Assembly (NCBI GenBank): GCA_021798795.1
Contig: JAJZBR010000003.1
Coordinates: forward strand, 1-55,627
Origin: Pseudomonadota bacterium
Lineage (GTDB): Bacteria; Pseudomonadota; Gammaproteobacteria; JAKAQQ01
Length of the DNA: 55,627 nucleotides
Direction of reading: 5' to 3'
Shown: in pieces, positions 80 through 37,316 of the stretch
Position numbering within the stretch: the first letter of the stretch is position 1
Layout: every line of letters begins with the position of its first letter
The notes under the pieces: model-generated
What the model was told of the DNA's origin: nothing
Database searches by the model: none
The model's input: the letters and a program-made list of their open reading frames with translations, nothing else
Position numbers and translations under genes: made by a program

Positions 80-296
80 GGTGATTTCCAGCGGTCGTTG
101 CAACATCATACGAGAGGAGGTGTTGCATGGGACGACCAAAGGGTTGGGTTACAGAACGGACAGGACGGGCGCCAATACGGTCGCCGGGTCGGCCGGGCGT
201 CAATCAGAGGGATGCCAAGCAAGCGTTTTGGGTGCGCATTGCGGCGGGTGCGTCAAGTGAGGATGCCGCCTTGGCGAGCGGAGTGTCGCAGCCGGT
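80..296 (+). mobile_element. IS30-family element left end plus truncated transposase N-terminus
   Basis: Terminal-like sequence GGTGATTTCCAGCGGTCGTTGCAACA, GGAGG RBS, then ATG 127 MGRPKGWVTERTGRAPIRSPGRP...FWVRIAAGASSEDAALASGVSQPV, typical of the HTH start of this IS30 subgroup. Confidence 0.7.
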
Positions 297-389
297 TATC
301 TCTCGCCGGTTAACTTTGAACGGAGGTACGCCCCTCGGGAACCATCGAAACTCACACATCCATGTGTCCACTAAAACGGGTGAAGTCCA
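294..389 (+). mobile_element. IS3-family transposase C-terminus and right inverted repeat
   Basis: One frame reads GYLSPVNFERRY (IS3 C-terminal GYxSPxxFE motif), followed by GTGTCCACTAAAACGGGTGAAGTCCA ending in CA (364-389), a typical IS3 end. Confidence 0.75.
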
Positions 390-572
390 CGCGCAAGCGC
401 ACCTCGATGCCACGGGCTGCGTGCGCCACTACAAATCGCTCGCGCAGGTCGTGTGGGCGTTCCGGTCGATGAAGGCGGTCGATCTCAAGGTCCACCCGAA
501 CCGCCATCGCCTGGCCGATCGGGTCCGGGCGCATAGCTCACTCTACATGTTCGCCTACCATGTCGCGTGGCT
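390..572 (+). pseudogene. IS1634-family transposase C-terminal fragment
   Basis: YKSLAQVVWAFRSMKAVDLKVHPNRHRLADRVRAH..YMFAYHVAW resembles the IS1634 YKxLxxVExAFRxxKxxDLxxRP-H-RVRAH motif, with the catalytic Glu lost. Confidence 0.7.
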
Positions 573-742
573 GCATCGCGAATGGGTGCGGATGCTCCCT
601 GAAAAATGGTGGGCTGTCCGGTGGAGTCCAGATCCAGCCAGCACACTTGATCATGGATCATGCATCCGGTCTTCGTGTGGCTGCACGCACTTCGGTCTGA
701 ACCGCACTGATCAAGGGCCGGATGTGGCGGCTGGGTGTGTGT

Positions 743-1357
743 TCAGTGCAGGCCTTCGAGATAGCTTGCGACGGCCTTCATTTGCGCAGGCGTGAGGTGA
801 CTCGCGACATAGTTCATCATCCCGTGCGGGCTGTTTTTCCTGCGCCCATGAGCGAAATCCTGAAGCTGACGATAGAGATAGGCCGACCATTGCCCGGCCA
901 GCCGCGGATATCGGGCCGGTTCATTTCCCATGCCAGCGGGCCCATGGCAGGCCATGCAGGCGGGCACGCCCTGATGGGGCAGCCCGCCCCGGAAGATGCG
1001 CTGTCCCAAAGCGACGAGCTTGGGATTGGCGAATCCCGGTGCGATGGTCTGGCGCGAAAAGTAGTGGGCGACCGAACGAATCTCGGCTGGCGTGAGTGGC
1101 GCAGCCATGGCCTGCATGATCGCACTGACCCGCTTGCCGGATTGGAAGTCATGCAGTTCCTTTTCGATGTAGCCCACGCCCTGAGCCGCGAGTTTCGGGA
1201 ATGCGGAAGTGGCGCTGTTGCCTTGTGGGCCGTGACAGGCGGAACAAACATGCGCAGCGAGCGTGGCACCCGTTTGGGGGGCGGCCCGGGAGGTGCCCAC
1301 ACAGGTCCCAAACAGGCCTCCAAGCACAGCTGCGATCACGAATCCGGTGCGTTTCAT
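743..1357 (-). CDS. Diheme cytochrome c4 (c553-type), exported
   Basis: Signal peptide, two CxxCH motifs (CSACH, CMACH), PKLAAQ/PRLAGQ motifs and distal Met ligands. Confidence 0.93.
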   Translation of the reverse strand: MKRTGFVIAAVLGGLFGTCVGTSRAAPQTGATLAAHVCSACHGPQGNSATSAFPKLAAQGVGYIEKELHDFQSGKRVSAIMQAMAAPLTPAEIRSVAHYFSRQTIAPGFANPKLVALGQRIFRGGLPHQGVPACMACHGPAGMGNEPARYPRLAGQWSAYLYRQLQDFAHGRRKNSPHGMMNYVASHLTPAQMKAVASYLEGLH

Positions 1358-1525: not shown

Positions 1526-1563
1526 AAAAAAAGCCCCGGCGTGTTAGGGGGATGCGCCGGGGC
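1526..1563 (-). terminator. Intrinsic terminator
   Basis: GCCCCGGCG-loop-CGCCGGGGC followed by TTTTTTT on the minus strand. Confidence 0.85.
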
Positions 1564-1646
1564 CAAGACGCGCTGGCCGATTGGGGAAATCGACCAACGG
1601 TTTCCGCTCAGGGAGGAGAGCGGAAAAACGCTGAACGTGCGTCACT
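1526..1646 (-). ncRNA. Putative ~120-nt small RNA with three C-rich-loop hairpins (sX13/ErsA-like position downstream of polA)
   Basis: Stems at 1601-1626, 1571-1599 and 1533-1563 with minus-strand loops UCCUCCCU, UCCCC and CAUCCCCCUAACA; G-U wobbles work only on the minus strand; ends in a U7 tract; promoter upstream. Confidence 0.72.
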
Positions 1647-1651
1647 ATGAA

Positions 1652-1679
1652 TTGGACAGGAGCCATACCGAAAAGTTCC
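1652..1679 (-). promoter_or_regulatory. sigmaE (RpoE/AlgU)-type promoter
   Basis: GGAACTT-N15-GTCCAA (= GAACTT-N16-TCCAA) on the minus strand. Confidence 0.7.
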
Positions 1680-1752: not shown

Positions 1753-4470
1753 TCAATGCGCCTCATCCCAGTTCGAGCCCACCCCGATTTCCACGGTGAG
1801 TGGAAGGGCGAGTTCAACCGCTCCGGTCATCTGGTCCCGGACGCCGGAGGTGACCGCTGCAACTTCCTCCTCGGGAACCTCCAGCACGAGCTCGTCGTGT
1901 ACCTGCATCAGAAGTGTGGCACGGAACCCGCCCTGCCGGAGCCAGTTCTCGGTCCGGATCATGGCGATCTTGATGATATCGGCAGCCGTGCCCTGCATGG
2001 GTGCATTGATGGCCGCCCGTTCGGCCGCTTGGCGCAGTACGTGTTGACGGCTCTTCAGGTTGGGCAGGTAGAGCCTGCGACCGAGGATCGTTTCGACAAA
2101 GCCGAGCTTGCGCGCTTCGTCCCGGAGATGATCCAGGTAGTCGCGAACCCGGGGGTAACGGTTGAAGTAACGGTCGATATAGCCTTGGGCCAACTCGCGC
2201 GAAAACCCGAGTTCGCGACCGAGGCCATAGGCAGACATCCCGTAGATCAGGCCGAAGTTGATGGTCTTGGCGAGCCGGCGCTGATTATCGTCGACCAACT
2301 GGGTTGGGATCCCGAACAGTTCCGCCGCCGTGGCCCGGTGGACATCGATTCCGTTCGCAAAAGCGGATCGGAGTCCGGGGTCCTCCGAGAAATGCGCCAG
2401 GATCCGAAGTTCGATCTGCGAATAATCGAGCGACAGGATGAGCGATCCCGGAGAGGCGATGAAGGCCTGACGGATCCGCTGTCCCTCGTGCGTCCGGATG
2501 GGAATGTTCTGGAGATTGGGATCCGAAGAGGACAATCGTCCGGTTGCAGTCGTCGCCTGGTGGTAGCTCGTATGCACACGACCGGTTGCCGGATGGATCG
2601 CCTCGGGCAGCCTTTCCGTGTAGGTCGATCGGAGTTTGGCGAGCCTGCGGTACTCGAGGATGAGACGAGGCAGTTCATGGTTCTGTGCCAGGTCTTCGAG
2701 GACCGCTTCCGCGGTCGAGCGCTGTCCGCCCGGGGTCTTGCCTTGGCTCGGGATGCCGAGTTCCTCGAACAGAATCGCCTGAAGCTGTTTAGGGGAATCG
2801 AGGTTGAAGGGTTTCCCGGCCAGGCCAAAAGCCTGATTCTGTAACGAGTGGAGCGTCGATGCGAGCTCAACCGACTGCTGCTGCAGAAGGCCCGGGTCGA
2901 TCCGGACCCCGGTGCGTTCCATGCGCATCAGGACGCCGCTCAACGGGATCTCGATCGATTCGACGATGTGCAAAAGAGCGGGAGTCGGAGCAAGCTCCTG
3001 CCAGAGCCGTTCATGCGCCCGCCAGGTGACCCAGGCATCTTCGCCCGCATATTCGCTCGCGGGCTTGAGCTGCACGGCGTCGAAGGAGCGTTGTCCCCGC
3101 CCCTTTCCGGTCACGGATTCATAGGTGATCTTCTCGATGCCGAGAACACGCCGGGCGACCGAGTCGAGATCGTGACGGCCGGCCGTGCTGTTCAACACGT
3201 AACTCTCGAGCATGGTGTCGTAGCGGACGCCTTGAACGAGGATGCCCTCGTTGAGCAGGATATGTCGGTCATATTTACTGTGGTGACCGACCTTCGGGAG
3301 GCTTGGATCTTCCAAAAGCGGTTTCAGGGCAGCGAGCACCTCGGCCACCGGAAGCTGTGCGGGATCCCCGTCTGCGGGGAGATGACGGAGCGGGATATAG
3401 CAGGCGTCATCGGGTCCGGTCGCGATCGACAGGCCGACGAGCTTGGCGTCGAGATAGTTGAGGGAGGTCGTTTCCGTGTCGATCGCAATGAGCTTAATCC
3501 CGCGTATCCGTTCGATCCAACGCTCGAGATCCCCCCGGTCGGTGATCATCGCCGTGTGCCCCCGCCCGGGTCCGCCCGGACCGTCCGTTGCCGCGCTGCC
3601 GGCCTGCTCGCCTGGAGAGGAGCGAGACGTGCGGTCGTGGAGTTCCAGAACCGAGAGCCTTTGGCGTAACGTCTCATGATCCGGCGGCGACATCCGGAGT
3701 TCCCCGGGGCGATCCGGAATGGCGAGTGCACAATCGAGTGTCACGAGGCGCCTCGCAAGTGCGAGCGAAGTCTCCGCTTCGCGCAGGGCGTGACCGGTTT
3801 GCCCGCTGAATGTCTCGCGCAGGTTCCAGATGGCGTCAAGCGAGCCGTAACGCTCGAGCCAGCGGGCCGCCGTCTTGGGCCCGACGCCCGGCACACCCGG
3901 AATATTGTCTGAACTGTCGCCGACCAGGGTCAGATAGTCCACGATCTGTTCGGGCCAGACCCCGTAACGCGCTTTGACCCCCGCCCGATTCGAATGGACC
4001 GAAGTCACCGGATGGACGAGTTCGATGTGATCGGATACCAGCTGGGCGAGATCCTTGTCAGCGCTGAAGAGGAGCACGTGGAATCCCTCAGCCGCCGCAC
4101 GGCAGGCGAGCGTTCCGAGAATGTCGTCGGCCTCGATACCGGGAATGCGGATCAGGGGGTATCCCTTTGCCCGGAGGAGGTCGTGGAGCGGTTCGATCTG
4201 GCTGGCAAGGGATTCAGGCATCGGCGGGCGTTGCGCTTTGTAGCCGGAGAATAGCTCGTGACGGAAGGTCCGACCGGGGGCATCGAAGACGATCGCGAGA
4301 TGGTCGGGCCGGTGTTTCTGCTCGAGCGCACCCAGCATCGACAGAACTCCCTTGATGGCGCCGGTCGGAAAGCCCCCAGTGGTGGTGAGGGGGGGCATGG
4401 CATGGAATGCGCGGTAGAGGTAGGCGGATCCGTCCAGCAGGAGGAAGGGCGGTCGCTCGGACTCAGGCAT
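1753..4470 (-). CDS. polA: DNA polymerase I
   Basis: 5'-3' exonuclease (LLDGS, EADD, GDSSDNIPG), 3'-5' exonuclease (IDTETT, YAGED), polymerase motifs DYSQIELR, KTINFGLIYG, QVHDEL. Confidence 0.99.
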   Translation of the reverse strand: MPESERPPFLLLDGSAYLYRAFHAMPPLTTTGGFPTGAIKGVLSMLGALEQKHRPDHLAIVFDAPGRTFRHELFSGYKAQRPPMPESLASQIEPLHDLLRAKGYPLIRIPGIEADDILGTLACRAAAEGFHVLLFSADKDLAQLVSDHIELVHPVTSVHSNRAGVKARYGVWPEQIVDYLTLVGDSSDNIPGVPGVGPKTAARWLERYGSLDAIWNLRETFSGQTGHALREAETSLALARRLVTLDCALAIPDRPGELRMSPPDHETLRQRLSVLELHDRTSRSSPGEQAGSAATDGPGGPGRGHTAMITDRGDLERWIERIRGIKLIAIDTETTSLNYLDAKLVGLSIATGPDDACYIPLRHLPADGDPAQLPVAEVLAALKPLLEDPSLPKVGHHSKYDRHILLNEGILVQGVRYDTMLESYVLNSTAGRHDLDSVARRVLGIEKITYESVTGKGRGQRSFDAVQLKPASEYAGEDAWVTWRAHERLWQELAPTPALLHIVESIEIPLSGVLMRMERTGVRIDPGLLQQQSVELASTLHSLQNQAFGLAGKPFNLDSPKQLQAILFEELGIPSQGKTPGGQRSTAEAVLEDLAQNHELPRLILEYRRLAKLRSTYTERLPEAIHPATGRVHTSYHQATTATGRLSSSDPNLQNIPIRTHEGQRIRQAFIASPGSLILSLDYSQIELRILAHFSEDPGLRSAFANGIDVHRATAAELFGIPTQLVDDNQRRLAKTINFGLIYGMSAYGLGRELGFSRELAQGYIDRYFNRYPRVRDYLDHLRDEARKLGFVETILGRRLYLPNLKSRQHVLRQAAERAAINAPMQGTAADIIKIAMIRTENWLRQGGFRATLLMQVHDELVLEVPEEEVAAVTSGVRDQMTGAVELALPLTVEIGVGSNWDEAH

Positions 4471-4664: not shown

Positions 4665-7253
4665 GTGAATCGTGGCAGTATACCATTGCTGAGATCCGTA
4701 CCCGGCTTCCTGGCCGAAGGTTTTGCGCCCGCCATGTCCATTTTCAAGTGGATCCTGTCGCTGTCGATATTTGATGATTTCCCGGATCCGGTCTTTTGTA
4801 AAAGCGTCTCGGGGCGCTACCTCTACAGCAATCGGTCGCATCGGGAGTTTTTCGGCATCGAGGACGTCCGCCCACCCTTCCATCCCCTCTTTGGCGTCCA
4901 GGCGCTGGAAGCCTGCCGGCGTTCCGACCGGGAAGCGTTCGACCGGGGCGAACCGATTGTCAATATCGAGTTTTTGGCAAGGCATGCCTCCGGTACCGAA
5001 AGCCCCCTTGAGGTTCACAAAATACCCATTCGGGGAACCGATCGGCAGTGGCTCGGATTGATCGGGGTGATTCGGGAATGGCACGCTACGCCGCGCGCAT
5101 CGAGCGCCCCCATGCGGATGGTCGCGGGTGCGGGTTTCGGTGCCAATCTCAAACCGGTTGGGACCGTGCTGGATGCGGAAGACACCGCAGGGCGCTGGGC
5201 TCTCGTGGGACAAAGTCTCAACCGTGCGATCTACATCCTCAATGGACGGGAACATTCGATCCTCGCCTGCAATGATGCGGCCGCGTCCCTGGCTGGCTAT
5301 CCGGCTCAAGTCCTGATCGGCAGATGCTTCGAGACGTTGTTTGCGGATCTTGACATGGGGCAGCGAGCGGATTCCGTCTGGCGCAGTCGCGCCCGACACC
5401 GGACCGCTCGTGGAGAAGAGCGTCCGGTTTGGGTCGAGTTCAAGAAAATCGAGCGCTCGGCTGGGTTTTGGGGGTTTGCGGTGGTCGACGATCTCAACCG
5501 AGAGAACCGCCTTGAATCCCACTGGCGGGAGCAGCGGCTTCACGACTGGCGTACAGGGTTACCCGCGCGGACGCTCTGGGCTGAGCGGATGCAGATTCGA
5601 CTCGGGGTCGCCCGCTCACCAGGCAGTTTCGCAGCCCTGATTCTGGTCGAGGTGGAAGATCCCCAAGCGGCGCTCGATCCCTATGGATACGAACTTTGGG
5701 ATCGCCTCCTGCAATCCGCCGCGGCACGCATCCAGACCCTTGTGGCACCCCAGGATCTGGTCGGTGTTGTCCGGGAGCGGGTGTTCGGGATTTATCTGGA
5801 GTCCCTGGCCACGCGCGACGATCTCGCCGCCTTCGGGACACGCCTTCTCGAAGCGTTGCATCTGCCGCATGTGATCGATGGTCTTTCAATCAACGGCTTG
5901 ACGGCGCACCTTGGGATCGCGGTGCCAGCATCTACCGATCAGGTGTCCGATGCGCTCGTGAATCAGGCTGATCTTGCCTTGCGGGAAGCGCGAAAAACCG
6001 GACAGGCTGCGGCGTATTTTGCAGACGAAATGGGGTTCGAGCGCGAGGCCGGGTATCGGATCCGGGAACAGTTTGGCCAGGCGCTCAGGGCCTGCAAACC
6101 CTTTCTCGTCTACCAGCCGATTATCGACATGGCCCAGGGATCCCTGTTCGGATTCGAGGGATTGATCCGCTGGAGAGAGGATGAACATCATCAGCGGAAC
6201 GCGGAGGAGTTCATCGGATGCGTCGAATCCGATCCGGCGCTCGCGCGGGAACTTGGTCAGTTCGTGCTGCTCGCCGCAGCGGATCATATCGAGCGGTGGT
6301 CTGCGCTCGGTTTCGAGGGTGCTCTCTCGATCAATATCGGTGCCCGTCACTTTCTTTCCGAACACTTCTTGAACGATGTCGGAGAGGCGTTGGAGCGCAT
6401 CACACATGATCGGGACCGTCTCATCATTGAGATTACGGAAACCGGCCCGTTCACGGATCTCGATCGTGCCCGGGTCGTCACCGAAACACTCCAGTCCTGG
6501 GGCGTGCGCGTACTGCTCGATGATTTCGGAACCGGCAACGCTTCCATGGTGCATCTGCACGAGCTTCCCGTGAACGGCATCAAGATCGAAAAGCGTTTCG
6601 TGCAGGACCTCCTTCGGGATGACAAGGCGCTCTGGATCGTGAGTTCGCTATTGCTCCATGCCCAGAGCCAGGGTCTCATCGTGATCGCGGAAGGCGTGGA
6701 AAATGACAGCGTGGGGACCCTGCTTCTCGAGTTGGGGTGTCACCTGGCGCAGGGTTATTACATCGCGCGCCCGCTCATGGCCTGGGATATTCCGAACTGG
6801 CTCGCCAAATGGACTCCGCCGATCCGCTGGCGCCGCCGCAGCATGCGTCCCTGGCCGCTCACCAACCTGGAAGGCATGGCTGCCGGATTCTCCCACCTCC
6901 GTTGGGTCGAGGAGATCCGTCATGCGCTGGCTGTTGAGGGAGACGATGTCCGGGAACTTGAAGGCCGCCTCCTCACGATGTGTGATACGACATCCGGCGA
7001 GCACTGCCGGCTCGGTTCCTGGCTCAGACATTCGGCTCCGATCGAAACGCGGAGCGAGACGTCCCTGCTGCCCCGGATTGCCGAACTGCACGCGGGCATT
7101 CATGCACAGGGGTTGCGCGCTGTCTCCGAACTCAAGACGGGCGATCGCAAACGGGCATTGCGCCACGTGGATGAACAGATGGCCGAGCCCACTCATGCAC
7201 TCCTCAGCCTGCTCGTTTCCGCGCTGGCCGAACAGGATCGCTTAAAGGCCTGA
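4665..7253 (+). CDS. PAS-PAS-GGDEF(degenerate)-EAL-CZB c-di-GMP phosphodiesterase-like protein (start may be 4734)
   Basis: PAS (FPDPVFCK, KIPIR..G), HDWRTGLP, GGDEF position reads VRERV, EAL domain (YQPI, EGLIRW, DDFGTG, AEGVE, QGY), C-terminal HxxW/CxLGxW/HxxxH. Confidence 0.9.
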   Translation: MNRGSIPLLRSVPGFLAEGFAPAMSIFKWILSLSIFDDFPDPVFCKSVSGRYLYSNRSHREFFGIEDVRPPFHPLFGVQALEACRRSDREAFDRGEPIVNIEFLARHASGTESPLEVHKIPIRGTDRQWLGLIGVIREWHATPRASSAPMRMVAGAGFGANLKPVGTVLDAEDTAGRWALVGQSLNRAIYILNGREHSILACNDAAASLAGYPAQVLIGRCFETLFADLDMGQRADSVWRSRARHRTARGEERPVWVEFKKIERSAGFWGFAVVDDLNRENRLESHWREQRLHDWRTGLPARTLWAERMQIRLGVARSPGSFAALILVEVEDPQAALDPYGYELWDRLLQSAAARIQTLVAPQDLVGVVRERVFGIYLESLATRDDLAAFGTRLLEALHLPHVIDGLSINGLTAHLGIAVPASTDQVSDALVNQADLALREARKTGQAAAYFADEMGFEREAGYRIREQFGQALRACKPFLVYQPIIDMAQGSLFGFEGLIRWREDEHHQRNAEEFIGCVESDPALARELGQFVLLAAADHIERWSALGFEGALSINIGARHFLSEHFLNDVGEALERITHDRDRLIIEITETGPFTDLDRARVVTETLQSWGVRVLLDDFGTGNASMVHLHELPVNGIKIEKRFVQDLLRDDKALWIVSSLLLHAQSQGLIVIAEGVENDSVGTLLLELGCHLAQGYYIARPLMAWDIPNWLAKWTPPIRWRRRSMRPWPLTNLEGMAAGFSHLRWVEEIRHALAVEGDDVRELEGRLLTMCDTTSGEHCRLGSWLRHSAPIETRSETSLLPRIAELHAGIHAQGLRAVSELKTGDRKRALRHVDEQMAEPTHALLSLLVSALAEQDRLKA
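4677..4685 (-). promoter_or_regulatory. Extended -10 element for lptM-polA
   Basis: TGGTATACT (TGn-TATACT) about 30 nt upstream of the lptM ATG. Confidence 0.45.
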
Positions 7254-14819: not shown

Positions 14820-14872
14820 GGGGGGGGGAGGGCTAGACTCTAAATCCTTCGCTCTTAGCTCGGAGTTTGCGC

Positions 14873-15865
14873 ATGAAAGAAGCCCCTTCTCCGTCATCTT
14901 GGACACTTGATGCGGTACTCGGACTCTTTGCCTCACCCTTCAACGATCTCCTCTACCGGGCGCAGAACATCCATCGCGCGCACTTCGATCCAAACGAGAT
15001 CCAGCTCAGCACACTGCTCAGCGTGAAGACAGGTGGCTGCCCCGAAGATTGCCATTACTGTCCGCAGAGCCTCCGTTATGACTCGGATGTGGAATCCGAG
15101 CCCCTTCTGTCCCTGGATCAGGTGATGGCCCGAGCGCTCCAGGCCAAGGCAGCGGGCGCCACCCGGTTCTGCATGGGGGCGGCCTATCGGGGACCCAAGG
15201 AGCGCGATCTCATCAGGATTCTCGAATACATCCGGGCCGTCAAGGCACTCGGCCTCGAGACCTGCGCCACCCTCGGGCTCCTGGATGCGGATCAGGCACG
15301 ACGTCTCGCGGAGGCGGGACTCGACTACTACAACCACAACCTTGACACATCGGAAGCGTATTACCCGGAGATCATCACGACCCGGCGCTATGCAGATCGG
15401 CTCGAGACGCTCGAACACGTTCGTCGCGCCGGCATGCGGGTTTGCTGCGGGGGGATCGTGGGCCTCGGTGAAACCATCCGGGATCGTGCAGAGCTTTTGC
15501 TCGAGTTGTCGCGCCTGGACCCCCCGCCCGAGAGTGTGCCGATCAACGAACTGGTTCCGGTTCCAGGCACCCCCCTCGCACAGGCTCCCAAGACGGATCC
15601 CATCGATTTTGTCCGGGTGATCGCAGTGGCCCGGATTCTCATGCCGACTGCCCACGTGCGTCTGTCGGCGGGGCGCAGTGCCATGAGTCGCGAACTCCAG
15701 GCCCTGTGTTTCCTTGCGGGGGCCAACTCGATCTTCTACGGAGAAAAACTTCTCACCACGCCCAATAACGACGCGGACGAGGATCGGGCGTTGTTTGAAG
15801 CATTGGGCCTGCGCGCCGAAGATCCGCTCCCGAGGGAGTCTGCAACGAGTGTTCATGTCGCCTGA
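14873..15865 (+). CDS. bioB: Biotin synthase
   Basis: [11 protein letters not shown] radical-SAM motif, [22 protein letters not shown]. Confidence 0.98.
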
Positions 15866-17021
15866 ATCGGTCGGAGACACTGATTGCGCAGCGGATCTCA
15901 TCCGCATCCGGCGCATCCGGGAAGCCCCCTCCGGAGGCATCCGGCACCCGGATGCGGGGCGGGATGGCCTCGCCTTCGATTCGAACGATTATCTTGGGCT
16001 CGCAACCTATCGACCCGTACAGGAAGCTTGGTCTCGGGGCGCGCGGATTTGGGGAGTGGGGAGCGGGGGGTCCCATCTGCTCTCCGGGCATACCCGGGCG
16101 CATGAGAGGCTTGAAGAGGCTCTCGCGGCCTGGACCGGGCGCGAGCGGGCCCTGCTCTTTTCGAACGGGTATATGGCCAACCTCTCCGTTCTCCAGGCAC
16201 TTTGCGGGAAAAGGCACAGGGTGGTGCAGGATCGGCTCAACCACGCATCCCTCTGGGATGGCGTTCGCCTCTCCGGTGCCCGTCTCAGGCGTTATGCGCA
16301 TGGCAAGGTCGAGGATGCCGAGCGGCTCCTGAGATCGGGAGAGGGCGCGCCGGGTTTGCTGGTTTCAGAGGGGGTATTCAGCATGGATGGGGATTGGGCG
16401 CCCCTGACCGGTCTGGCCGCCGCCGCCCGGGCAGCCCGGGTTACCTTTATGGTCGATGATGCACACGGCATCGGCATATGGGGCCCTGAAGGTCAAGGGA
16501 CCTGCGCCGCGCACGCGCTCGGTCAGGACGAGGTCCCGATTCTCATGGCTACACTCGGCAAGGCGCTTGGCACCTATGGCGCCTTTGTCGCCGGATCGGC
16601 TGCGCTGATCGAAACCCTGATCCAGCGGGCTCGACCCTACCGGTATACCACCGCACTCCCACCAGCTCTGGCCGAAGCCACGCTGATTGCACGACAGTGC
16701 GTGATTCGGGAGCCGGAACGGCGGGAGCATCTATTCGGACTGATCCATTATTTCAAAACAGGTTGCACCGAGCTCGGTCTTCCGCTCCTGCCTTCGCCCT
16801 CTCCGATCCAACCGCTCTGGCTCGGATCCGCACGGGCGGCGCTCGATGTGAGCCGGGCGCTCGCCACCCGGGGTCTTTGGGTCCCGGCGATTCGTCCGCC
16901 GACGGTTCCCCGCGGGCAGGCGCGACTCCGGATCAGCCTGTCCGCCTCCCATAGCCGCGCAAACATCGACCGGTTGCTCGAGGGTCTATCCGACGTGTGC
17001 CCGCGTTTGAACCCGCCGTGA
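15855..17021 (+). CDS. bioF: 8-amino-7-oxononanoate synthase
   Basis: SNDYLGL, NHASL.DG, FSMDGD, DDAHG, TLGKALG, IRPPTVP. Confidence 0.96.
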
Positions 17022-17773
17022 CCTCGTTACTCCTCATTCATGGCTGGGGGTTCAACCGGCGCGTCTTCGACCCTCTGCTCGAGCCTCTCGCCCGGGCGGG
17101 AATCCAGGCGAGCTTCTGGGAGCTGCCCGGACACGGCAGGCAGATTGGGGTCGAGGTCGCCCCGACTCTCGGGGCCTGGGCCGGGGCTTGTCATTCGCAC
17201 CTCCCCCGGGCGCCCCAGGTGATTCTCGGATGGTCGCTCGGCGGGCAGGTGGCAGTGGAACTCGCGCTGCGATACCCCAAGCAGGTTCAGGGTTTGATTC
17301 TGGTCAGCACGACGCCACGCTTTGTAGCCGGCGCCGATTGGGAAGACGGACATGACATCCAGGTATTCGAGCGGTTTGCCGGCGAACTCGAGGTGCAATA
17401 CGAGAAGACGCTGAGTGATTTTCTGTGGCTCCAACTCCGCAATCCAGAGACGGCACACCGGGTCGTACCCAAACTCCGGGACGCCCTCGCCAGAGGTGGG
17501 GCACCGACTCTCGCGGGGTTGCGTGCCGGACTCGAGATTCTGAAGACGAGCGATCAGCGGGAGGCACTCCGGGGGGGGCTCCCGCAGCCGACAGCCCTCC
17601 TCGCTGGAAAGCAGGATCGGCTGGTCTTGCCCGGGGCGATCAAGTGGCTGGCCGGGGCGCTCGGCATCGAGGCTGTCTGGCTCACCCGGGGCGGGCATGT
17701 TCCTTTTCTCACGGATCCAGACTGGTTCACGCAAGAGGTGAGAGGGTTCCTGAATGCGCACGCGGGTCTTTGA
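17018..17773 (+). CDS. bioH: Pimeloyl-ACP methyl ester carboxylesterase
   Basis: HGWG, GWSLGG nucleophile elbow, HVPFL; GTGA overlap with bioF. Confidence 0.92.
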   Translation: MTSLLLIHGWGFNRRVFDPLLEPLARAGIQASFWELPGHGRQIGVEVAPTLGAWAGACHSHLPRAPQVILGWSLGGQVAVELALRYPKQVQGLILVSTTPRFVAGADWEDGHDIQVFERFAGELEVQYEKTLSDFLWLQLRNPETAHRVVPKLRDALARGGAPTLAGLRAGLEILKTSDQREALRGGLPQPTALLAGKQDRLVLPGAIKWLAGALGIEAVWLTRGGHVPFLTDPDWFTQEVRGFLNAHAGL

Positions 17774-18581
17774 ACTCGACTTCGGGGCGGTCCGGAAAGG
17801 ATTCCGGATGGCCGCATCGACCTATGATGAGGCGGCCGGATTGCAGCACCGGATCGAGTCTGATCTCATCGAACGCCTGTCGCTGCTCGATCTCAGGCCC
17901 CAGTGGATTCTCGATCTCGGTTGCGGAACCGGACATGCGATCCCGTCGCTCGCCCGGCAGTACCCGCAAGCTTGCATCATCGGGATCGATGCCGCCTTTG
18001 AGATGCTGCATTGGAAGCAGGCCCACCCGGATCGTCGCTCAGAGGCGCTCTGTGCCGATGTGCGGGCTTTGCCGATCGCCCCCTCGAGCGTGGATCTCGC
18101 ATTCAGCAATCTTCTCTTGCAGTGGCTGGACGACCCCGGTCCCGCCGTCTCGGAAATTTACCGGGTTCTCGCGGACCGATCGGCTTTCCTGTTTGCAACC
18201 TTTGGACCGCGCACCTTCGCGGAACTCCGTGGGGCCTGGGCAGAGGTAGATTCAGATCCGCATGTGAGCGAGTTCATGGACGGCCCGGCCTGGGGAAATG
18301 TCCTCATGCGGGCGGGGTTTGTGGAAGTTGTCCTGGATGCTGATGTTTGGGTCGAGGAGGTTTTGGACCTCAAGACCCTGGCCGGTCACCTGAGGCAGAT
18401 CGGAGCGACCAACCGGCATGTCCATCGCGCCCGCGGGCTGCTCGGGAGAAAACGACTCACGACCCTGACCCGCGCCTATGAGCGGCTGCGCCGCCCGGGA
18501 GGAGGGTTGCCGGTCACGTATGAGATGCTCTACGGGCTCGCATGGACTCCGTTGCGGCTCACCCGGGTATCGGGTGCCTGA
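17754..18581 (+). CDS. bioC: Malonyl-ACP O-methyltransferase
   Basis: LDLGCGTG, SNLLLQW, ELRGAW..VD..HVS.F; operon context. Confidence 0.93.
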   Translation: MRTRVFELDFGAVRKGFRMAASTYDEAAGLQHRIESDLIERLSLLDLRPQWILDLGCGTGHAIPSLARQYPQACIIGIDAAFEMLHWKQAHPDRRSEALCADVRALPIAPSSVDLAFSNLLLQWLDDPGPAVSEIYRVLADRSAFLFATFGPRTFAELRGAWAEVDSDPHVSEFMDGPAWGNVLMRAGFVEVVLDADVWVEEVLDLKTLAGHLRQIGATNRHVHRARGLLGRKRLTTLTRAYERLRRPGGGLPVTYEMLYGLAWTPLRLTRVSGA

Positions 18582-19280
18582 ATGGCTGGCGCCGGCGTTT
18601 TCATAACTGGCACGGACACCTCCGTGGGTAAAACGGTGGTTAGTGCCGGATGGATCCGGCGCGGCATTACGCACGGGCTCCGGGTTGCGGCCATGAAACC
18701 GGTTGCGACGGGCGGTGTTCTGCGGGAGATGCACCAGTTGCGGAGTTCAGATGCGGAACAACTCCGGGCCGAGATCAATGTCGAGGAGACGTGGGAAGAG
18801 CTCAATCCCTATGTTTTCCCCCCGCCGGTTTCCCCCAACATTGCCGCCGAGCGGGCAGGCGTCACGATCGAGATCAACCGGATCGTGGATGGGGCGCGGG
18901 CACTCGAGCGCCGGTCGGATGTCGTGGTCGTCGAAGGAGTCGGCGGCTGGCGGGTTCCGCTCGGGGCGGACACATCGACCGTCAATCTGGTGCGCGCGCT
19001 CGGCTATCCGGTCGTTCTGGTTATTGGGCTCAGGCTCGGGTGCATCAATCATGCGCTTCTCACGAGGGAGGCCATTGACGCGGATGGGATCCCCTGCCTC
19101 GGGTGGGTCGCGAACCGGCTGGATCCCGCTCTCGAGGAGACCGAAGCGGTACTTGCGACGCTTGTGGCCCGGCTTGCTTCGCCCTGTCTCGGAGTGATCC
19201 CGCTCCTCGAAGCGTGCGACATCGGTCAGGTGGCGCGGGCGCTCCGTCTCCCCGATCTTCGGGGGAGCCCGGGCGTTTGA
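18582..19280 (+). CDS. bioD: Dethiobiotin synthetase
   Basis: TGTDTSVGKT, KPVATG, EGVGG, LGCINHA. Confidence 0.97.
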   Translation: MAGAGVFITGTDTSVGKTVVSAGWIRRGITHGLRVAAMKPVATGGVLREMHQLRSSDAEQLRAEINVEETWEELNPYVFPPPVSPNIAAERAGVTIEINRIVDGARALERRSDVVVVEGVGGWRVPLGADTSTVNLVRALGYPVVLVIGLRLGCINHALLTREAIDADGIPCLGWVANRLDPALEETEAVLATLVARLASPCLGVIPLLEACDIGQVARALRLPDLRGSPGV

Positions 19281-19389: not shown

Positions 19390-19917
19390 GTGCACACAAT
19401 CATTGTTCGTCCGAACCGCTCACTTCATCGGACCGAACTCGGACTGCTCGGGTTAGGTCTCTGTGCAGCCCTCACATTGGGGGGGGTGCTGACTTGGCTC
19501 TTCGGATTCTGGCCGATTCTTGCATTTGACGGACTGGCCCTGATCGGGCTGGTTGCGGCCGTCTGGTTCGCAAACCGGGCAGGCGGCTACCTCGAAGAGA
19601 TCCGTATCGATGACGATTGGGTGAGCGTCGTCAAGGGTGTCTGCACCCCCCAGTCCACCTTCCGGGCGCGTCGTCCCTGGACCCGCCTGATCGAGGATAC
19701 CCAGGGACCTTGGAAGCGCTACCGGCTCTGGATCGGCTCATCCGGGCGGTTCTGCGAGATTGGGACGTGTCTCGGAGAGGATGAGAGGCGGGAGCTCTTC
19801 TGGCGGCTCCGGCGTTATTTCAACTTCATGAGCACGAGCGCGCATGGCGCCGGGAGTCCGGGAAACGGCACGGCTGGAACTCCAACCGAGATTCAAGCGG
19901 GAGACATTCGTACATGA
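19390..19917 (+). CDS. DUF2244 family membrane protein
   Basis: RPNRSL, G.WPIL.F.G, two TM helices, EIG.CL.E.ER; usual position before coxB. Confidence 0.85.
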   Translation: MHTIIVRPNRSLHRTELGLLGLGLCAALTLGGVLTWLFGFWPILAFDGLALIGLVAAVWFANRAGGYLEEIRIDDDWVSVVKGVCTPQSTFRARRPWTRLIEDTQGPWKRYRLWIGSSGRFCEIGTCLGEDERRELFWRLRRYFNFMSTSAHGAGSPGNGTAGTPTEIQAGDIRT

Positions 19918-20750
19918 AAAAGAAGTGGCTGCATGCCGCCTGGTGCACCAGTCTGCTTGCGGCGATCACGATGCCCACCCTTTGGGCTGCAAACCTCTAC
20001 AACCTGCCCCATGGCGTGACTCCGGTGAGCCATGCCATCTACGGGCTCAGCATGATGGCGTTCTGGATCATGTGCGGGATCGCGGTCGTTGTATTCGGGG
20101 CGATCACCTGGTCGATCATCTTCCACAGAAGGTCCCGTCATCCGAAGCCCGCCGACTTTCACGAAAACACGGTGCTCGAGATCGTCTGGACGGTGATTCC
20201 CTTCCTTATCCTGATCGCGATGGCCATCCCGGCGGCGCGTGTCCTGATCCGGGCCGAGAATGTCCACCACTCCGAACTCACCGTCGAGGTGACCGGTTAC
20301 CAGTGGCTCTGGCGGTATACCTACCCCCGCTGGAAGATCAACATCTACAGCCGTCTCGCCGATTCGAGCCTCCGGATTGCTCCGCTCCACTCCGGCCGCA
20401 GTCCGTATAGTACCCCCCACTATCTGCATGCGGTCACGCATCCCTTGGTGTTGCCGGTCGGCGAGAAAGTGCGTCTGCTCATCACCTCGAAAGACGTCAT
20501 TCACTCCTGGTGGGTTCCGGACCTGGGTGTCCAGATGGATGCCAACCCGGGTCTCGTCAACTCGATCTGGGTCAAAATCCTGAAACCGGGCACCTATCGT
20601 GGGCAATGCAACCAGATCTGCGGCTGGGGACATGCCTACATGCCCATCGTGGTGGTCGCAAAACCGAAAGCGCAATTTTTATCGTGGGTGAAACATTGGC
20701 GCAAGCGCCATCCCCAAGCCCTATCCCCTGCCACCACCCCGGATCCGTGA
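19914..20750 (+). CDS. coxB: Cytochrome c oxidase subunit II
   Basis: LEIVWT, GYQWLW, DVIHSWW, CuA motif CNQICGWGHAYM. Confidence 0.97.
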   Translation: MKKKWLHAAWCTSLLAAITMPTLWAANLYNLPHGVTPVSHAIYGLSMMAFWIMCGIAVVVFGAITWSIIFHRRSRHPKPADFHENTVLEIVWTVIPFLILIAMAIPAARVLIRAENVHHSELTVEVTGYQWLWRYTYPRWKINIYSRLADSSLRIAPLHSGRSPYSTPHYLHAVTHPLVLPVGEKVRLLITSKDVIHSWWVPDLGVQMDANPGLVNSIWVKILKPGTYRGQCNQICGWGHAYMPIVVVAKPKAQFLSWVKHWRKRHPQALSPATTPDP

Positions 20751-20789
20751 TCTGTCACCTGCATCGGTCAACCAGCGGAGACCCCTGTC

Positions 20790-22367
20790 ATGTCTGAATC
20801 GATCGCCCTAAGCCACGACGCACACCCGGCCGGCCGGGGGCTCACGCGCTGGATCAAGACGACCAATCACAAGGATATCGGCACGCTCTATCTGCTTTTC
20901 AGCCTGATCATGTTCTTCATCGGCGGTGCGATGGCCATGGTGATCCGGGCGGAACTCTTCGAGCCCGGGCTCCAGTTTGTGAATCCGGGGTTCTACAACC
21001 AGCTGGTCACGATGCATGGGCTCATCATGGTCTTCGGAGCGGTGATGCCGGCCTTCGTGGGACTTGCCAACTGGATGATCCCACTCATGATTGGCGCCCC
21101 CGACATGGCGCTGCCCCGCCTCAATAACTGGAGCTTCTGGATTCTGCCGTTCGCATTCACGCTGCTCTTGCTCACTCTTTTTCTTCCGGGGGGCGGACCC
21201 GAGGGCGGCTGGACCCTCTATGTGCCCTACAGCTTGGAACTCGGCTATTCGTTCCCGTTCCTGATCTTCGCGATCCATCTCATGGGGATCTCATCCGTCC
21301 TCGGCGGGATCAACATCATCGTCACCATCCTGAACATGCGCGCACCGGGCATGACGCTCATGAAGATGCCGCTTTTCGTGTGGGCCTGGCTGATCACGGC
21401 CTATCTCCTGGTCGCCGTCATGCCGGTTCTCGCGGGCGGAGTCACGATGCAGCTTTTTGACCACTTTTTCGGGACGCATTTCTTTTCGGTCGCAGGCGGC
21501 GGCAGTCCTCTGCTCTGGGAAAATGTTTTCTGGTTCTTCGGGCATCCCGAGGTCTATATCATGATCCTGCCGGCTTTCGGGATCATCTCGGAGATCGTGC
21601 CGACCTTCTCCCGCAAACCCCTGTTCGGCCGGACCTCGATGATCTATGCGCTGGCCTCGATCGCGTTTCTTTCGTTCATCGTCTGGGGCCACCACATGTT
21701 CACCTCGGGGATGCCGGTCTCTGCGGATCTCTTCTTCATGTTCAGCACCATGCTGATTGCCGTCCCGACGGGAGTCAAAATCTTCAACTGGATCGCGACC
21801 ATGTGGAAGGGGGCTCTGACCTTCGAAGTGCCGATGCTTTTTGCCATCGCGTTCATCGTACTCTTCACGATCGGCGGCTTCTCGGGCGTGATGCTTGCGC
21901 TCGCACCGGCCGACTTCCAGTATCACAACAGCTATTTCGTGGTGGCCCACCTTCATTACGTCCTGGTCACCGGCGCCGTGTTCGCCATCATGGCAGCGGT
22001 CTACTATTGGCTGCCCAAATGGACGGGTCACCGGTACAGCGAGTTCTGGGGAAAGGTCCATTTCTGGGTCAGTGTGATATCGGTCAACGTGCTCTATTTC
22101 CCGATGCACTTCCTGGGCTTGGCCGGTATGCCGCGGCGTGTACCGGATTACGCCGTCCAGTTCACCGATCTCAACATGATCTCGAGCATCGGTGCTTTCG
22201 TTTTCGGGTCAGCCCAGCTCATCTTCGTGGCGATTATTTTTGCCACGATCTACGGGGGCAAGAAGGCGGAAGCCCGTGCCTGGGAAGGTGCGCACGGACT
22301 CGAGTGGACCGTGCCCTCACCTGCGCCCTACCATACCTTCAGTTCGCCCCCAGAAGTCATGGGATGA
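20790..22367 (+). CDS. coxA: Cytochrome c oxidase subunit I (A1 type)
   Basis: HKDIG, PDMALPRLNN, GHPEVY, WGHHMF, PTGVK, AHLHY, GMPRR. Confidence 0.99.
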   Translation: MSESIALSHDAHPAGRGLTRWIKTTNHKDIGTLYLLFSLIMFFIGGAMAMVIRAELFEPGLQFVNPGFYNQLVTMHGLIMVFGAVMPAFVGLANWMIPLMIGAPDMALPRLNNWSFWILPFAFTLLLLTLFLPGGGPEGGWTLYVPYSLELGYSFPFLIFAIHLMGISSVLGGINIIVTILNMRAPGMTLMKMPLFVWAWLITAYLLVAVMPVLAGGVTMQLFDHFFGTHFFSVAGGGSPLLWENVFWFFGHPEVYIMILPAFGIISEIVPTFSRKPLFGRTSMIYALASIAFLSFIVWGHHMFTSGMPVSADLFFMFSTMLIAVPTGVKIFNWIATMWKGALTFEVPMLFAIAFIVLFTIGGFSGVMLALAPADFQYHNSYFVVAHLHYVLVTGAVFAIMAAVYYWLPKWTGHRYSEFWGKVHFWVSVISVNVLYFPMHFLGLAGMPRRVPDYAVQFTDLNMISSIGAFVFGSAQLIFVAIIFATIYGGKKAEARAWEGAHGLEWTVPSPAPYHTFSSPPEVMG

Positions 22368-22368
22368 G

Positions 22369-22506
22369 ATGTTGGACGCACCCGAACCTGGCTCACCCGC
22401 CGATCGCACCCCAAGGAAGCGAGCCGTGCGCATGGCCATCTCACTCGGTGTCCTGGCCGTTCTCATCTATCTCGGGTTCTACGGGATCCGGGTCTGGTTG
22501 GGCTGA
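22369..22506 (+). CDS. Small single-TM protein of the cox operon (45 aa)
   Basis: ATG 1 nt after the coxA stop; basic stretch RKRAVR then a hydrophobic helix. Confidence 0.6.
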   Translation: MLDAPEPGSPADRTPRKRAVRMAISLGVLAVLIYLGFYGIRVWLG

Positions 22507-22575
22507 GATCGACCCCATGCGACCCGCGACCCCCGCTTTCGCCATCCCCTATCTCAGCCTGGAGACCACCCACGC

Positions 22576-23445
22576 ATGAGCGCATCCGCCGATTCCTATT
22601 ACCTGCCGCATGGAACACCCTGGTCCATACTCGGCTCCCTGGGGCTTTTCGGTTTCATGCTGGGTGCAGGCGTTTGGATCGATGGCTGGAACCTTCTCGG
22701 GCCCCTCATCATGGGGCTTGGGATCCTTCTCCTCATTCTAACCAAGCTCGGCTGGTTTGGGGCGGTCATACGCGAGAGCGAGTCGGGTGTCTATAACCAG
22801 CAGGTCGATCGAACGTTCCGCTGGGCCATGGCGTTTTTCATATTCTCTGAAGTCATGTTTTTCGGCGCATTCTTCGGAACCCTGTTCTATGCGCGGCTCT
22901 TCGTGGTCCCCTGGCTGGGGGGCGCCTCATACATGTTTTATACCCATGCGCTTCTCTACCCGCATTACCGGGCGCTCTGGCCGACCAATGGCCCGGCCCA
23001 TGTCGGGGGTGCGTTCAGCGCCATGCCGCCTTGGGGCATCCCCGCCCTCAACACCCTGATCCTGCTCTCGAGCGCGGTGACCGTGACCCTGGCCCACTGG
23101 GCACTCAAGGCCGGGCATCGTCGGAAGGTGATTGCCGGACTCGTCGCGACGATCGCCCTTGGTGTGAGCTTTCTCCTGATGCAGGCGCATGAGTACTATC
23201 ATGCCTACACGCATCTCAACCTGACGCTCCATAGCGGCATCTACGGGGCGACGTTTTTCATCCTGACGGGATTCCACGGCCTTCACGTCACAATCGGCGT
23301 GATCATGCTCTCCGTGATCCTGATCCGCGTGCTGCGCGGCCATTTCACCCCTGAGCATCATTTTGCTTTCGAGGCGGTCTCCTGGTACTGGCATTTTGTC
23401 GATATCGTCTGGCTGGGTCTTTTTATTTTCGTCTACTGGCTCTGA
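22576..23445 (+). CDS. coxC: Cytochrome c oxidase subunit III
   Basis: FIFSEVMFF, NTLILLSS, TGFHGLHV, WYWHFVD. Confidence 0.98.
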   Translation: MSASADSYYLPHGTPWSILGSLGLFGFMLGAGVWIDGWNLLGPLIMGLGILLLILTKLGWFGAVIRESESGVYNQQVDRTFRWAMAFFIFSEVMFFGAFFGTLFYARLFVVPWLGGASYMFYTHALLYPHYRALWPTNGPAHVGGAFSAMPPWGIPALNTLILLSSAVTVTLAHWALKAGHRRKVIAGLVATIALGVSFLLMQAHEYYHAYTHLNLTLHSGIYGATFFILTGFHGLHVTIGVIMLSVILIRVLRGHFTPEHHFAFEAVSWYWHFVDIVWLGLFIFVYWL

Positions 23446-23493
23446 CCCGGAGACTGCGACCAGGCTTGCAAACCGGGAGGGGATCGCGAGGGA

Positions 23494-23706
23494 TCAGGGC
23501 CGGCTGATTCCGTGTGGATGAATCCAGCCCATGAAGTACCCGAGAATGAGCAAAGCGAAGAGCAGAAGGGACAGGCCGATTCGCCAGGACAGCGCCCGGA
23601 CCGTACGGGTCCCCCTCCCGCGGTCTTGGGCGAGACTCACGAATGCCCGGGCCAGGACAACCACGATGATGACGAAGAGCGCAACGATGATCAGTTTGAA
23701 CAGCAC
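23494..23706 (-). CDS. Twin-transmembrane small protein (DUF2909-like)
   Basis: RTVRALSWRIGLS..LF...G.I.PHG motif; typical antisense position between coxC and surf1. Confidence 0.85.
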   Translation of the reverse strand: MLFKLIIVALFVIIVVVLARAFVSLAQDRGRGTRTVRALSWRIGLSLLLFALLILGYFMGWIHPHGISRP

Positions 23707-23761
23707 GTTCAGTATCCAAACCCGGAGATGGGTGAGCCGTCTCGTTACCGGTTAGTATGCC

Positions 23762-24490
23762 ATGCAGGGTGTGTCCGGGTGGCGGTTTGCACCCCAATGG
23801 TGGCCCAGTTTCGGGGCCTGGATCCTCATTGTCCTGTTCCTGTTTTTCGCAGACTGGCAGTGGCGGGCGGCCCGATCGAGTGAGGTGGCGCTTCAGGCTT
23901 CGGCGCATAGTGTCACGGTCCGGTCCACGCCCTGGCCGATCGGCAGGCAGCCGCGTCCGTTCGAGCGGGTTTCGGTCCGGGGCCATTTTCTCGTCGGCCG
24001 GGACCTTCTCCTGATCGATCTCTACCACCACAACCAGATAGGTGCCGAAGTGGTCACGGTCTTCAGGCCCCGGCGCGGCACGCCGTGGATCCCGGTCGAC
24101 CGGGGCTGGATTCCCGCCTCTTCTCTGGGGCATACCCGCCTGCCGCTGGATCCGGGGCTTCCGCCCGGGCTCGTCCGCATCAAAGGATACGCCGGAGCTT
24201 TGCCTCATCCCGGTCTCCATCTCGGAAATGGACCGATCCCACGCGGCTGGCCCAAACCGATCCTCTTTCCAACTCATGCTTTTCTTGAGAAAATATACGG
24301 TCATTCACTGACCCGCCCAGTCCTTCTGCTCGGATCCCGTGAGCCGGGTGGATTCGTCCGGGACTGGAAGCCCGTTCCACCGATCGGACCCGTGCGGCAT
24401 TTCGGTTATGCTCTGCAGTGGCTCCTCTTGGCCCTCCTCGTATTCGGGATCTGGGTCGGGCTCAACTTGCACCGGGAATCGCCTTTATGA
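23762..24490 (+). CDS. SURF1 family oxidase assembly protein
   Basis: WQW.R, VDRGWIP, RHFGYALQW. Confidence 0.9.
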   Translation: MQGVSGWRFAPQWWPSFGAWILIVLFLFFADWQWRAARSSEVALQASAHSVTVRSTPWPIGRQPRPFERVSVRGHFLVGRDLLLIDLYHHNQIGAEVVTVFRPRRGTPWIPVDRGWIPASSLGHTRLPLDPGLPPGLVRIKGYAGALPHPGLHLGNGPIPRGWPKPILFPTHAFLEKIYGHSLTRPVLLLGSREPGGFVRDWKPVPPIGPVRHFGYALQWLLLALLVFGIWVGLNLHRESPL

Positions 24491-25098
24491 ACCAACGCGC
24501 CGTTTCTACCTTCCCGAAGTGGGCCATCGTGGTTGCCATCGTCGGGGTGTTCGCGTTGCCGGTTCTGATCGCCGGACTCTGGTACATGAATGTGAACCAG
24601 TGGGGAGTCGGACGGACGATGAACTATGGACATCTCATCACGCCACCCGTCCGGCTTCGAATCGCAGCGCTGCCATTGATCGTGGGTCACGGCCATCTCA
24701 CGACCCGGTACTTCAAAGGTCGCTGGACCCTCGTCTACATCGGGGGTGCGAAATGCACGCCCGACTGTCGCGCCGCGCTCTATGCCACGAGACAGATCCG
24801 TCTTGCACTCGGTGAGGACATCCGCCGGGTTCAGCGGCTCTATGTCGTGACGGGTGTGCCCCAAAAGCTCGGGTTTCTCGAAGTCGAGGATCCGGACCTC
24901 ACCATCGTTCGGGCACAGGGTACAATCGGCAGACACTTCACCCGTCAGTTCTTCAAGGCGGCCGACGCTCATCTCGGCGCACGTATCTATCTCGTCGACC
25001 CCTTGGGCAATCTCATGATGTCCTATCCCGCGGCCGTCAATCCGCACGGTCTCATGCGGGACCTGAAGCGTCTGCTGTCCGTCTCCGAGATCAGTTGA
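24487..25098 (+). CDS. SCO/thioredoxin-like cytochrome oxidase assembly protein
   Basis: TM anchor, NYGHLI.P, CTPDC, YLVDPLGNLMM.Y, DLKRLL. Confidence 0.85.
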   Translation: MNQRAVSTFPKWAIVVAIVGVFALPVLIAGLWYMNVNQWGVGRTMNYGHLITPPVRLRIAALPLIVGHGHLTTRYFKGRWTLVYIGGAKCTPDCRAALYATRQIRLALGEDIRRVQRLYVVTGVPQKLGFLEVEDPDLTIVRAQGTIGRHFTRQFFKAADAHLGARIYLVDPLGNLMMSYPAAVNPHGLMRDLKRLLSVSEIS

Positions 25099-37310: not shown

Positions 37311-37316
37311 ACCGGG

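Follow-up and report, generated by a model that had tools for sequence, protein, structure and literature searches.

The window analyzed here covers positions 1 to 55,627 of contig JAJZBR010000003.1 (assembly GCA_021798795.1; 55,627 nucleotides [nt]) from a Pseudomonadota bacterium of the gammaproteobacterial lineage JAKAQQ01. On its minus strand, after the DNA polymerase I gene polA, we found a real and conserved small RNA (sRNA) gene of about 120 bases. We consider it likely that this is an independently transcribed, trans-acting sRNA gene, the local member of a large polA-linked family that includes sX13 and anti-hemB/ncS04, and that its promoter works through sigmaE (RpoE), an extracytoplasmic function (ECF) sigma factor. 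The window RNA is thus an unannotated relative of two described sRNAs and not a new kind of element.

The stop codon of polA lies at 1753, on the same strand as the RNA, and the predicted promoter begins at 1679. A preliminary description, made from the letters of the window, had read a GAACTT-N16-TCCAA promoter motif at this place. That reading was correct: the motif runs along the minus strand from 1679 to 1652, with a −35-like GGAACTT (1673..1679) that was invariant in eight of eight sequences of the order and, after a 16-nt spacer, a −10-like TCCAA (1652..1656). Promoter geometry and terminator together predict a transcript of about 120 nt (1526..1646, minus strand), whose 5′ end would fall about 6 nt past the −10 element and whose 3′ end is a run of seven U residues (U7).

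Folding of the minus strand from 1650 to 1520 with RNAfold gave exactly the three hairpins and U7 terminator expected from the preliminary description, at −59.7 kcal/mol (z = −6.43; 0 of 200 shuffles were as stable). The same description had argued that two G-U pairs in stem 2 fix the strand. The plus strand folded less well (z = −4.39), with hairpin 2 interrupted at both G-U positions. Hairpin 1 (1626-1601, minus strand) carries the loop UCCUCCCU at 1617-1610, identical in seven of the eight sequences of the order. This loop and the 3′ end of 16S rRNA have CCUCC in common, in keeping with the earlier view of the C-rich loops as resembling anti-Shine-Dalgarno (anti-SD) sequences. Hairpin 2 (1598-1572, minus strand) contains the U-G pairs 1597/1573 and 1593/1577 and the loop UCCCC at 1587-1583, which lies inside the invariant UUUCCCCA and within UUUCCCCAA. 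The intrinsic terminator (1526..1564, minus strand) is built from a 9-10-bp GC stem (1564-1532), a 13-nt C-rich loop, CAUCCCCCUAACA, at 1554-1542, and the U7 run at 1532-1526. Its stem was invariant in the order, and its loop was C-rich in two genera (g1 and g3), with g2 as the exception. A small 4-bp hairpin may also precede hairpin 1. This weak candidate (ACGC/GCGU stem, 1628..1642, minus strand; 1642-1639 pairing with 1631-1628) appeared partly in the minimum-free-energy (MFE) fold, was kept in three congeners, and was absent from the shorter leader of genus g2. The MFE fold also contained an outer stem between the 5′ leader and the spacer after hairpin 2, which we rejected on inspection of the congeners, where it was not kept.

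A blastn search recovered the element behind polA in both congeners as well as in the family's two other genera, with GGAACTT and TC..A invariant and both C-rich loops identical. We then used a covariance model, R1, built from the eight sequences of the window's order with the promoter not included. Since the window sequence is among these eight, its own R1 score (110 bits at 1636-1526) is given by construction, and the independent features for its membership in the family are the promoter and the synteny. Of the 10 genomes of the order, 9 yielded one R1 match each, and the genome that yielded none is 65% complete. In the window's own genome R1 found a single copy and blastn found no paralogue, so the element is single copy in the assembly and not a repeat. 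Our class sample consisted of 151 genomes, one per family, of Gammaproteobacteria in the sense of GTDB, and R1 matched 60 of them at E ≤ 0.01. Most bacterial sRNAs are confined to a genus or family; recognizable relatives of this one are present in about 40% of the families sampled here. A phylum-wide search gave only weak R1 matches outside the class (27-36 bits, in six sampled genomes). A pattern scan of named genomes, whose search pattern likewise lacked the promoter, returned 102 stretches, 80 of which were listed. The listed matches include Ectothiorhodospira, Thioalkalivibrio, Wenzhouxiangellaceae, Chromatiaceae, Competibacteraceae, Candidatus Tenderia, and Woeseiaceae, together with a handful of evident chance matches in unrelated phyla. 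Two unpublished genomes, G047 (L049) and G149 (L069), are part of the class-sample, synteny, alignment, promoter, and RpoE co-occurrence tallies; without them each count shifts by at most 2, and none of our claims depends on these two genomes by themselves.

The covariation analysis rested on 111 matches from 100 sources aligned to R1. Of the 80 pattern loci, this alignment leaves out the likely chance matches L089, L097, L122, and L130, the duplicates L099 and L110 of relatives already included, and L151-L161, which exceeded the limit of 100 sources. Across the 107 distinct family sequences, 28 of 29 base pairs were changed on both sides, a count somewhat inflated by the fitting of the alignment to the model structure, though the margin is large: paired cells made up 89.6%, against 71.9% in shuffles (0 of 500 reached 89.6%) and 32-55% with slid partners. 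In the helix of hairpin 1 this held for nine of nine pairs, and in helices 2-4 every pair was changed on both sides across the family. Compensatory substitutions in stem 2 were present already among the eight sequences of the order. Thus, the covariation that the preliminary description had proposed to look for behind polA in relatives is there, and loops and stems are both kept. Taken together, these data bear out its proposal of an sRNA gene at this locus, one that is real, conserved, and independently promoted.

The synteny extends well beyond the window. In 27 of 37 related loci, the polA C terminus was encoded ahead of the sRNA and in the same orientation: in all 7 loci of the window and its closest kin and in 20 of the other 30. 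The other loci comprised one with a convergent polA and nine with no polA in the 1.5-kb flank. Among the 80 pattern loci listed, polA was upstream in 46. Some genomes carry two or three sRNA copies in tandem, 150-300 nt apart (L083, L092, L125, L140, L143 [Ectothiorhodospira], L098, L139, L058, and L073), and each such copy was tallied as a separate match; unlike these, the window's order has a single copy. The second tandem copy in Ectothiorhodospira reads GAACCA, not GAACTT, at the −35 position.

The promoter, absent from both R1 and the scan pattern, counts as an independent feature. We defined the sigmaE-like motif as GAACTT (at most one mismatch), 15-17 nt, and TCNNA, allowing a single deviation overall. 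Of 109 distinct family copies, 88 had this motif upstream, compared to 108 of 10,000 windows drawn at random from the same loci (1.1%), which supports the sigmaE-type promoter of the preliminary description and shows it to be conserved across the family. The motif lay mostly 42-49 nt ahead of the model start, with a 16-nt spacer in 74 of the 88 and a −10 element at or close to TCNNA. On visual inspection, variants of the motif could still be seen in most of the 21 copies without the defined form. A narrower regular expression matched 49 of the 80 listed pattern loci versus 25 of 15,657 control anchors. We take the family motif to resemble the sigmaE/AlgU consensus of Escherichia coli and Pseudomonas. 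This family-wide promoter is, in our opinion, the most interesting and most testable point of the analysis, and we did not find it in the literature searched.

An RpoE equivalog above the NCBIfam cut-off was present in five of five relatives examined. In all five, the rpoE gene carries GAACTC-N16-TC(T/A)NA 20-40 nt before its start, which would be the expected autoregulated promoter. Judging from these sequences, the lineage's own sigmaE appears to read this type of motif. Across the class sample, RpoE was found in 55 of 60 sRNA-positive genomes versus 52 of 91 sRNA-negative genomes (odds ratio, 8.25; Fisher P = 2.9e-6), a statistic that ignores phylogeny and genome reduction. Four of the five sRNA-positive genomes without RpoE, the window's own genome (G000) included, are 71-82% complete.

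The described sRNA closest to the window RNA, by score, is anti-hemB (RF02837), a family that the preliminary description had not named. Its model matched the full length from 1626 to 1526 at 45.0 bits (E = 2.5e-9), a near miss of the cut-off of 49.5. The two RNAs have in common a hairpin 1 whose ...CCUCCCU loop is closed by GAGCGG and a GC-rich terminator followed by a U run; they differ in that the middle hairpin of the 81-position Rfam model is short and not C-rich. The anti-hemB cut-off was passed in 3 of 20 related loci and in 8 of the 151 class genomes, at places that R1 also matches, and at E ≤ 0.001 the model matched 75 of the 151, largely at R1's places. The Rfam thresholds thus miss most members. 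One of the passing copies, in G084, lies after polA and behind GAACTA-N16-TCTGA. A second weak anti-hemB match in the window's own assembly, on contig C19, was an ordinary terminator without C-rich loops and was rejected. The name anti-hemB comes from a position beside hemB; no ALAD/hemB domain was found among the 35 open reading frames (ORFs) of the window that were scanned, and the neighbors of the element are polA and a cytochrome c gene. In Burkholderia cenocepacia J2315, ncS04/anti-hemB is described as a 105-nt transcript, confirmed by rapid amplification of cDNA ends, that binds Hfq; in the passages on this RNA its level is given as unchanged under the stresses listed and no function is assigned (PMC5688073). 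The name ncS04 occurred in one relevant paper of the literature searched.

The preliminary description had likened the element to sX13 (RF02232) of the Xanthomonadaceae. This likeness is real in both directions, though it stayed below threshold. The sX13 model matched the window RNA at 34.6 bits (E = 6.7e-5; cut-off, 50), and R1 matched both bona fide sX13 genes at 29 and 32 bits, where the sX13 model itself gives 103 and 117. The RNAs agree in size (about 115 nt for sX13), in a gene directly downstream of polA, which we confirmed for the two bona fide copies, and in having three hairpins with C-rich loops (UCCUCCCU, UCCCC, and CAUCCCCCUAACA in the window RNA). The 4C/5C motifs of the sX13 loops differ from UCCUCCCU of the window. 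The bona fide sX13 genes were confined to family f17 (G025 and G412), and the window's order forms a separate group of 10 genomes. According to the sections on its genomic context and action, sX13 is a 115-nt RNA, “always located downstream of polA” and reported as exclusive to the Xanthomonadaceae, that is constitutively expressed and whose C-rich loops act on G-rich mRNA motifs independently of Hfq (PMC3771888). It is the only relative with a tested mechanism. The same paper, in those sections, asked whether the polA locus of other bacteria encodes such RNAs (PMC3771888), and our data answer that it does. We conclude that the window RNA is a divergent member of an sX13/anti-hemB superfamily that joins both described families in a continuum.

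Three further families were compared. The ar14 (alpha-r14) model (RF02344) matched at 42.4 bits (E = 1.6e-6; cut-off, 58.8). Like the window RNA, the ar14 RNAs string together two or three hairpins whose loops are of the CCUCCUCCC type. They belong to another class, the Alphaproteobacteria, and the loop motif by itself may account for the likeness. The ErsA model (RF01719) gave 18 bits (E = 0.49; cut-off, 50), which is noise and lends no support to the ErsA likeness of the preliminary description. The model of Spot 42 (RF00021), an RNA whose sigma70 promoter is repressed by CRP and whose seeds are single stranded and U rich, had no match up to E = 10 on 1300-1850 and none in the window's own genome. 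Neither the ErsA nor the Spot 42 model matched any of the 151 class genomes, and the ErsA model also matched none of 121 genomes in the order of a “Halomonas” metagenome-assembled genome, samples without a positive control for ErsA. The Spot 42 gene, as mentioned in the sX13 report, adjoins polA (PMC3771888). ErsA is described as sigma22 dependent and located in the polA-engB spacer (PMC5819304 and PMC8575079), so that it may have promoter type and slot in common with the window RNA, whose sigmaE-like motif is present and conserved. As these accounts describe it, the pairing domain of ErsA is an unstructured region between two stem-loops and not a set of C-rich loops. “ErsA-like” would therefore be an analogy of promoter type and locus only. 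The literature searched contained no paper with both ErsA and sX13, and sX13 and RpoE were mentioned together only in unrelated places.

From these data we propose the following model. Envelope stress would free RpoE, which would recognize GGAACTT-N16-TCCAA and start transcription near 1646. Judging from sequence and fold, the transcript would end at the GC-rich hairpin and U7. The covariation shows that the RNA folds into three hairpins, which display the conserved C-rich loops. By analogy with sX13, the loops may base pair, at translation starts, with sequences that are G rich or resemble SD sites and so lower translation of a set of mRNAs, perhaps with Hfq, whose gene is present in the window's own genome. 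This model suggests a testable idea, namely, that sX13-like RNAs are primarily envelope stress regulators.

Several results weigh against this model, besides the inflation of the pair counts given above. At gathering thresholds, Rfam had no family at the locus. The 1.76-Mb assembly contains 11 copies of the strict promoter motif, where we estimate about 5-6 from base composition, and alone, in one genome, the motif is not diagnostic; because this single-genome occurrence is not significant, the weight of the motif in the window rests on its conservation. We did not find rpoE in the window's own 80%-complete assembly, in which the best match was an ECF sigma gene of 88 bits against a cut-off of 236. 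Since rpoE is present in five of five relatives, the gene probably lies in the missing 20%. The described anti-hemB and sX13 RNAs do not obviously share the family promoter. The best anti-hemB match of the class sample (G157, 65.7 bits), a place that R1 does not find, has no sigmaE-like motif and no polA within 2.5 kb. The region upstream of both sX13 genes inspected reads GAACCA-N16-TGTTA, not TCNNA, and looks like an extended −10 sigma70 site, perhaps with a relic GAAC −35 element. Such a site fits the published constitutive expression and hints at a promoter switch in the Xanthomonadaceae. No specific targets emerged either. In a duplex-energy scan of 3161 candidate starts (from a crude ORF call based on GC at third codon positions), shuffled loops equaled or outperformed the real ones, so the target ranking is meaningless, and exact 8-mer seed matches near starts were few (3, 11, and 12 for loops 1, 2, and 3, respectively) and mostly on doubtful ORFs. 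Finally, three metatranscriptome runs of the same study yielded only short pieces, less than 90% identical, of the polA of other organisms, with none over 1526-1679.

The RNA could be real and a member of the family yet be driven by another sigma factor, sigma70 or a different ECF sigma, in which case the motif would not report envelope stress. The missing RpoE and the 88-bit ECF sigma gene speak for this, as does a second strict GGAACTT-N16-TCCAA copy that lies divergently beside that gene. Nevertheless, we regard it as rather unlikely, because all five relatives have a full RpoE with the same type of motif at its own promoter, the sRNA co-occurs with RpoE across families, and motif, 16-nt spacer, and position are conserved in 88 of 109 copies. 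A different possibility is that the hairpins are nothing but the polA terminator or 3′ untranslated region, perhaps a processed fragment, with no regulatory role of their own. A terminator scan from the polA stop (1753) to the element found none, only a hairpin at about 1698-1682 without a U run. With no terminator of its own in this interval, polA probably shares the U7 terminator with the sRNA, so that the element would double as the polA terminator. Termination, on the other hand, needs neither two extra hairpins with invariant C-rich loops nor a conserved promoter motif at a fixed distance. Moreover, in 10 of 37 loci the RNA occurs without a same-strand upstream polA in the 1.5-kb flank, and several genomes have tandem copies. 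An element of this purely terminating kind is, in our judgment, quite improbable.

We also considered that the RNA might chiefly titrate a protein or another RNA through its C-rich loops, as a sponge or decoy, and not pair with ribosome-binding sites. Titrating RNAs often occur in tandem copies, and so does this family; in addition, no specific mRNA target stood out, and the conservation of the loops goes far beyond what any one target site would demand. Against this, loop 1 is complementary to strong SD sequences, and for sX13 the parts of the report on its targets describe reporter fusions that show loop-dependent posttranscriptional control of G-rich targets (PMC3771888). We hold titration as the chief role to be very unlikely. 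Even less credible to us is a reading of the stretch as coding for a small protein or as the cis-acting leader of the cytochrome c gene, which follows the element in the same orientation after 170 nt. A run of about 33 codons without a stop does extend from GTG at 1645 to TAA at 1546-1544, and the same frame is open in two congeners. In genus g2, however, a 1-nt deletion between hairpins 1 and 2 shifts this frame while both hairpins and loops are kept, promoter-to-terminator lengths differ by 1 and 3-4 nt among congeners, the stem 2 substitutions preserve pairing, and no SD sequence precedes GTG 1645. As for a leader, the cytochrome gene is set apart from the RNA by a strong terminator and has a sigma70-like site of its own, and in other families engB, on the opposite strand, stands between RNA and cytochrome gene.

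A broader hypothesis would derive all polA-adjacent sRNAs of Gammaproteobacteria (this family, sX13, anti-hemB/ncS04, ErsA, and perhaps Spot 42) from one ancestral sigmaE-controlled RNA. We offer it tentatively and think it possible but doubtful as a whole: the links to sX13 and anti-hemB have support, and those to ErsA and Spot 42 would be conjecture. If common descent were true, the RNA would have been rewired later to other promoters and seeds in some lineages and would rank among the oldest and most widespread trans-acting sRNAs, as an unrecognized arm of the envelope stress response. It would also have been kept in this order though its usual neighbor engB is gone.

The gene order in other families is polA, sRNA, engB on the opposite strand, and a cytochrome c4-like gene, with two of these engB genes confirmed at 232-233 bits. 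In the window there is no engB at the locus, and the cytochrome gene comes directly next on the minus strand. The polA side of the polA-engB slot is present here, and its engB side was not found. In model bacteria, engB (YihA/YsxC) is an essential GTPase gene. It was not found in 1357-1526 of the window or in the own genome, where the best TIGR03598 match was a Der-like ORF at 61 bits and tblastn with the two confirmed EngB proteins gave no match. Nor was it found in five relatives (G002-G006), searched with TIGR03598 in the four genomes that are at least 94% complete and with a protein query in all five, which showed weak matches to larger GTPases only.

The preliminary description had named the pil operon of the window as a candidate target, with AGGAGG before pilS as the pairing site, on the ground that sX13 is linked to type IV pilus regulation. 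The pilin gene of this PilN/O/Q/S/V-like cluster (36735-37310, plus strand) starts with GTG at 36735 and has AGGAGG 7 nt before it. This hexamer is a generic SD sequence, found 42 times in the window versus 33.6 ± 6.5 in shuffles, and we dropped pilS as a target, its complementarity being generic only. The target of sX13 named in the portion of the report concerned with pili is pilH (PMC3771888), and we take the type IVb cluster here to be a different pilus system from that of pilH. The cluster (29856-39024, plus strand) encodes a secretin, a PilO-like protein, a T2SSE ATPase, a PilS/bundlin-type prepilin, and a PilV-like protein with Shufflon_N.

Two observations concern promoters outside the window. 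Both sX13 genes (L186 in G025 and L192 in G412) have a conserved GAACCA-N16-TGTTATAG about 20-50 nt upstream. The 88-bit ECF sigma gene, the assembly's only RpoE-like gene, lies at 36144-36880 of contig C58 (locus L075). Behind it come a putative anti-sigma gene and a gene of 308 aa; the divergent motif copy beside the sigma gene points towards a 407-aa gene read off the end of the locus.

Within the window, polA (1753..4470, minus strand; 905 aa) is an ORF with the Pfam domains DNA_pol_A, 5_3_exonuc_N, DNA_pol_A_exo1, and 5_3_exonuc, and a gene for a PAS-GGDEF-EAL protein (862 aa; 4665-7253, plus strand) is divergent from it. The cytochrome gene (743..1357, minus strand), given here for context only, encodes a c4-like di-haem cytochrome c of 204 aa (Pfam Cytochrom_C and Cytochrome_CBB3), and its sigma70-like site is TAGACT-N18-TACAAT at 1435-1406. 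The contig begins beside this gene with two ORFs (2-313 and 127-795, plus strand) without a Pfam match, and the stretch 1-795 may be a rearranged or mobile remnant. Farther along, 14867-19280 (plus strand) has Pfam matches to BATS/radical SAM, aminotransferase, alpha/beta hydrolase, methyltransferase, and AAA_26, which would fit biotin synthesis. An aa3-type cytochrome c oxidase cluster with assembly genes (COX2, COX1, COX3, SURF1, CtaA, and UbiA-type) occupies 19914-27025 (plus strand), and a sigma-70-family gene of 297 aa lies at 27117-28010 (minus strand).

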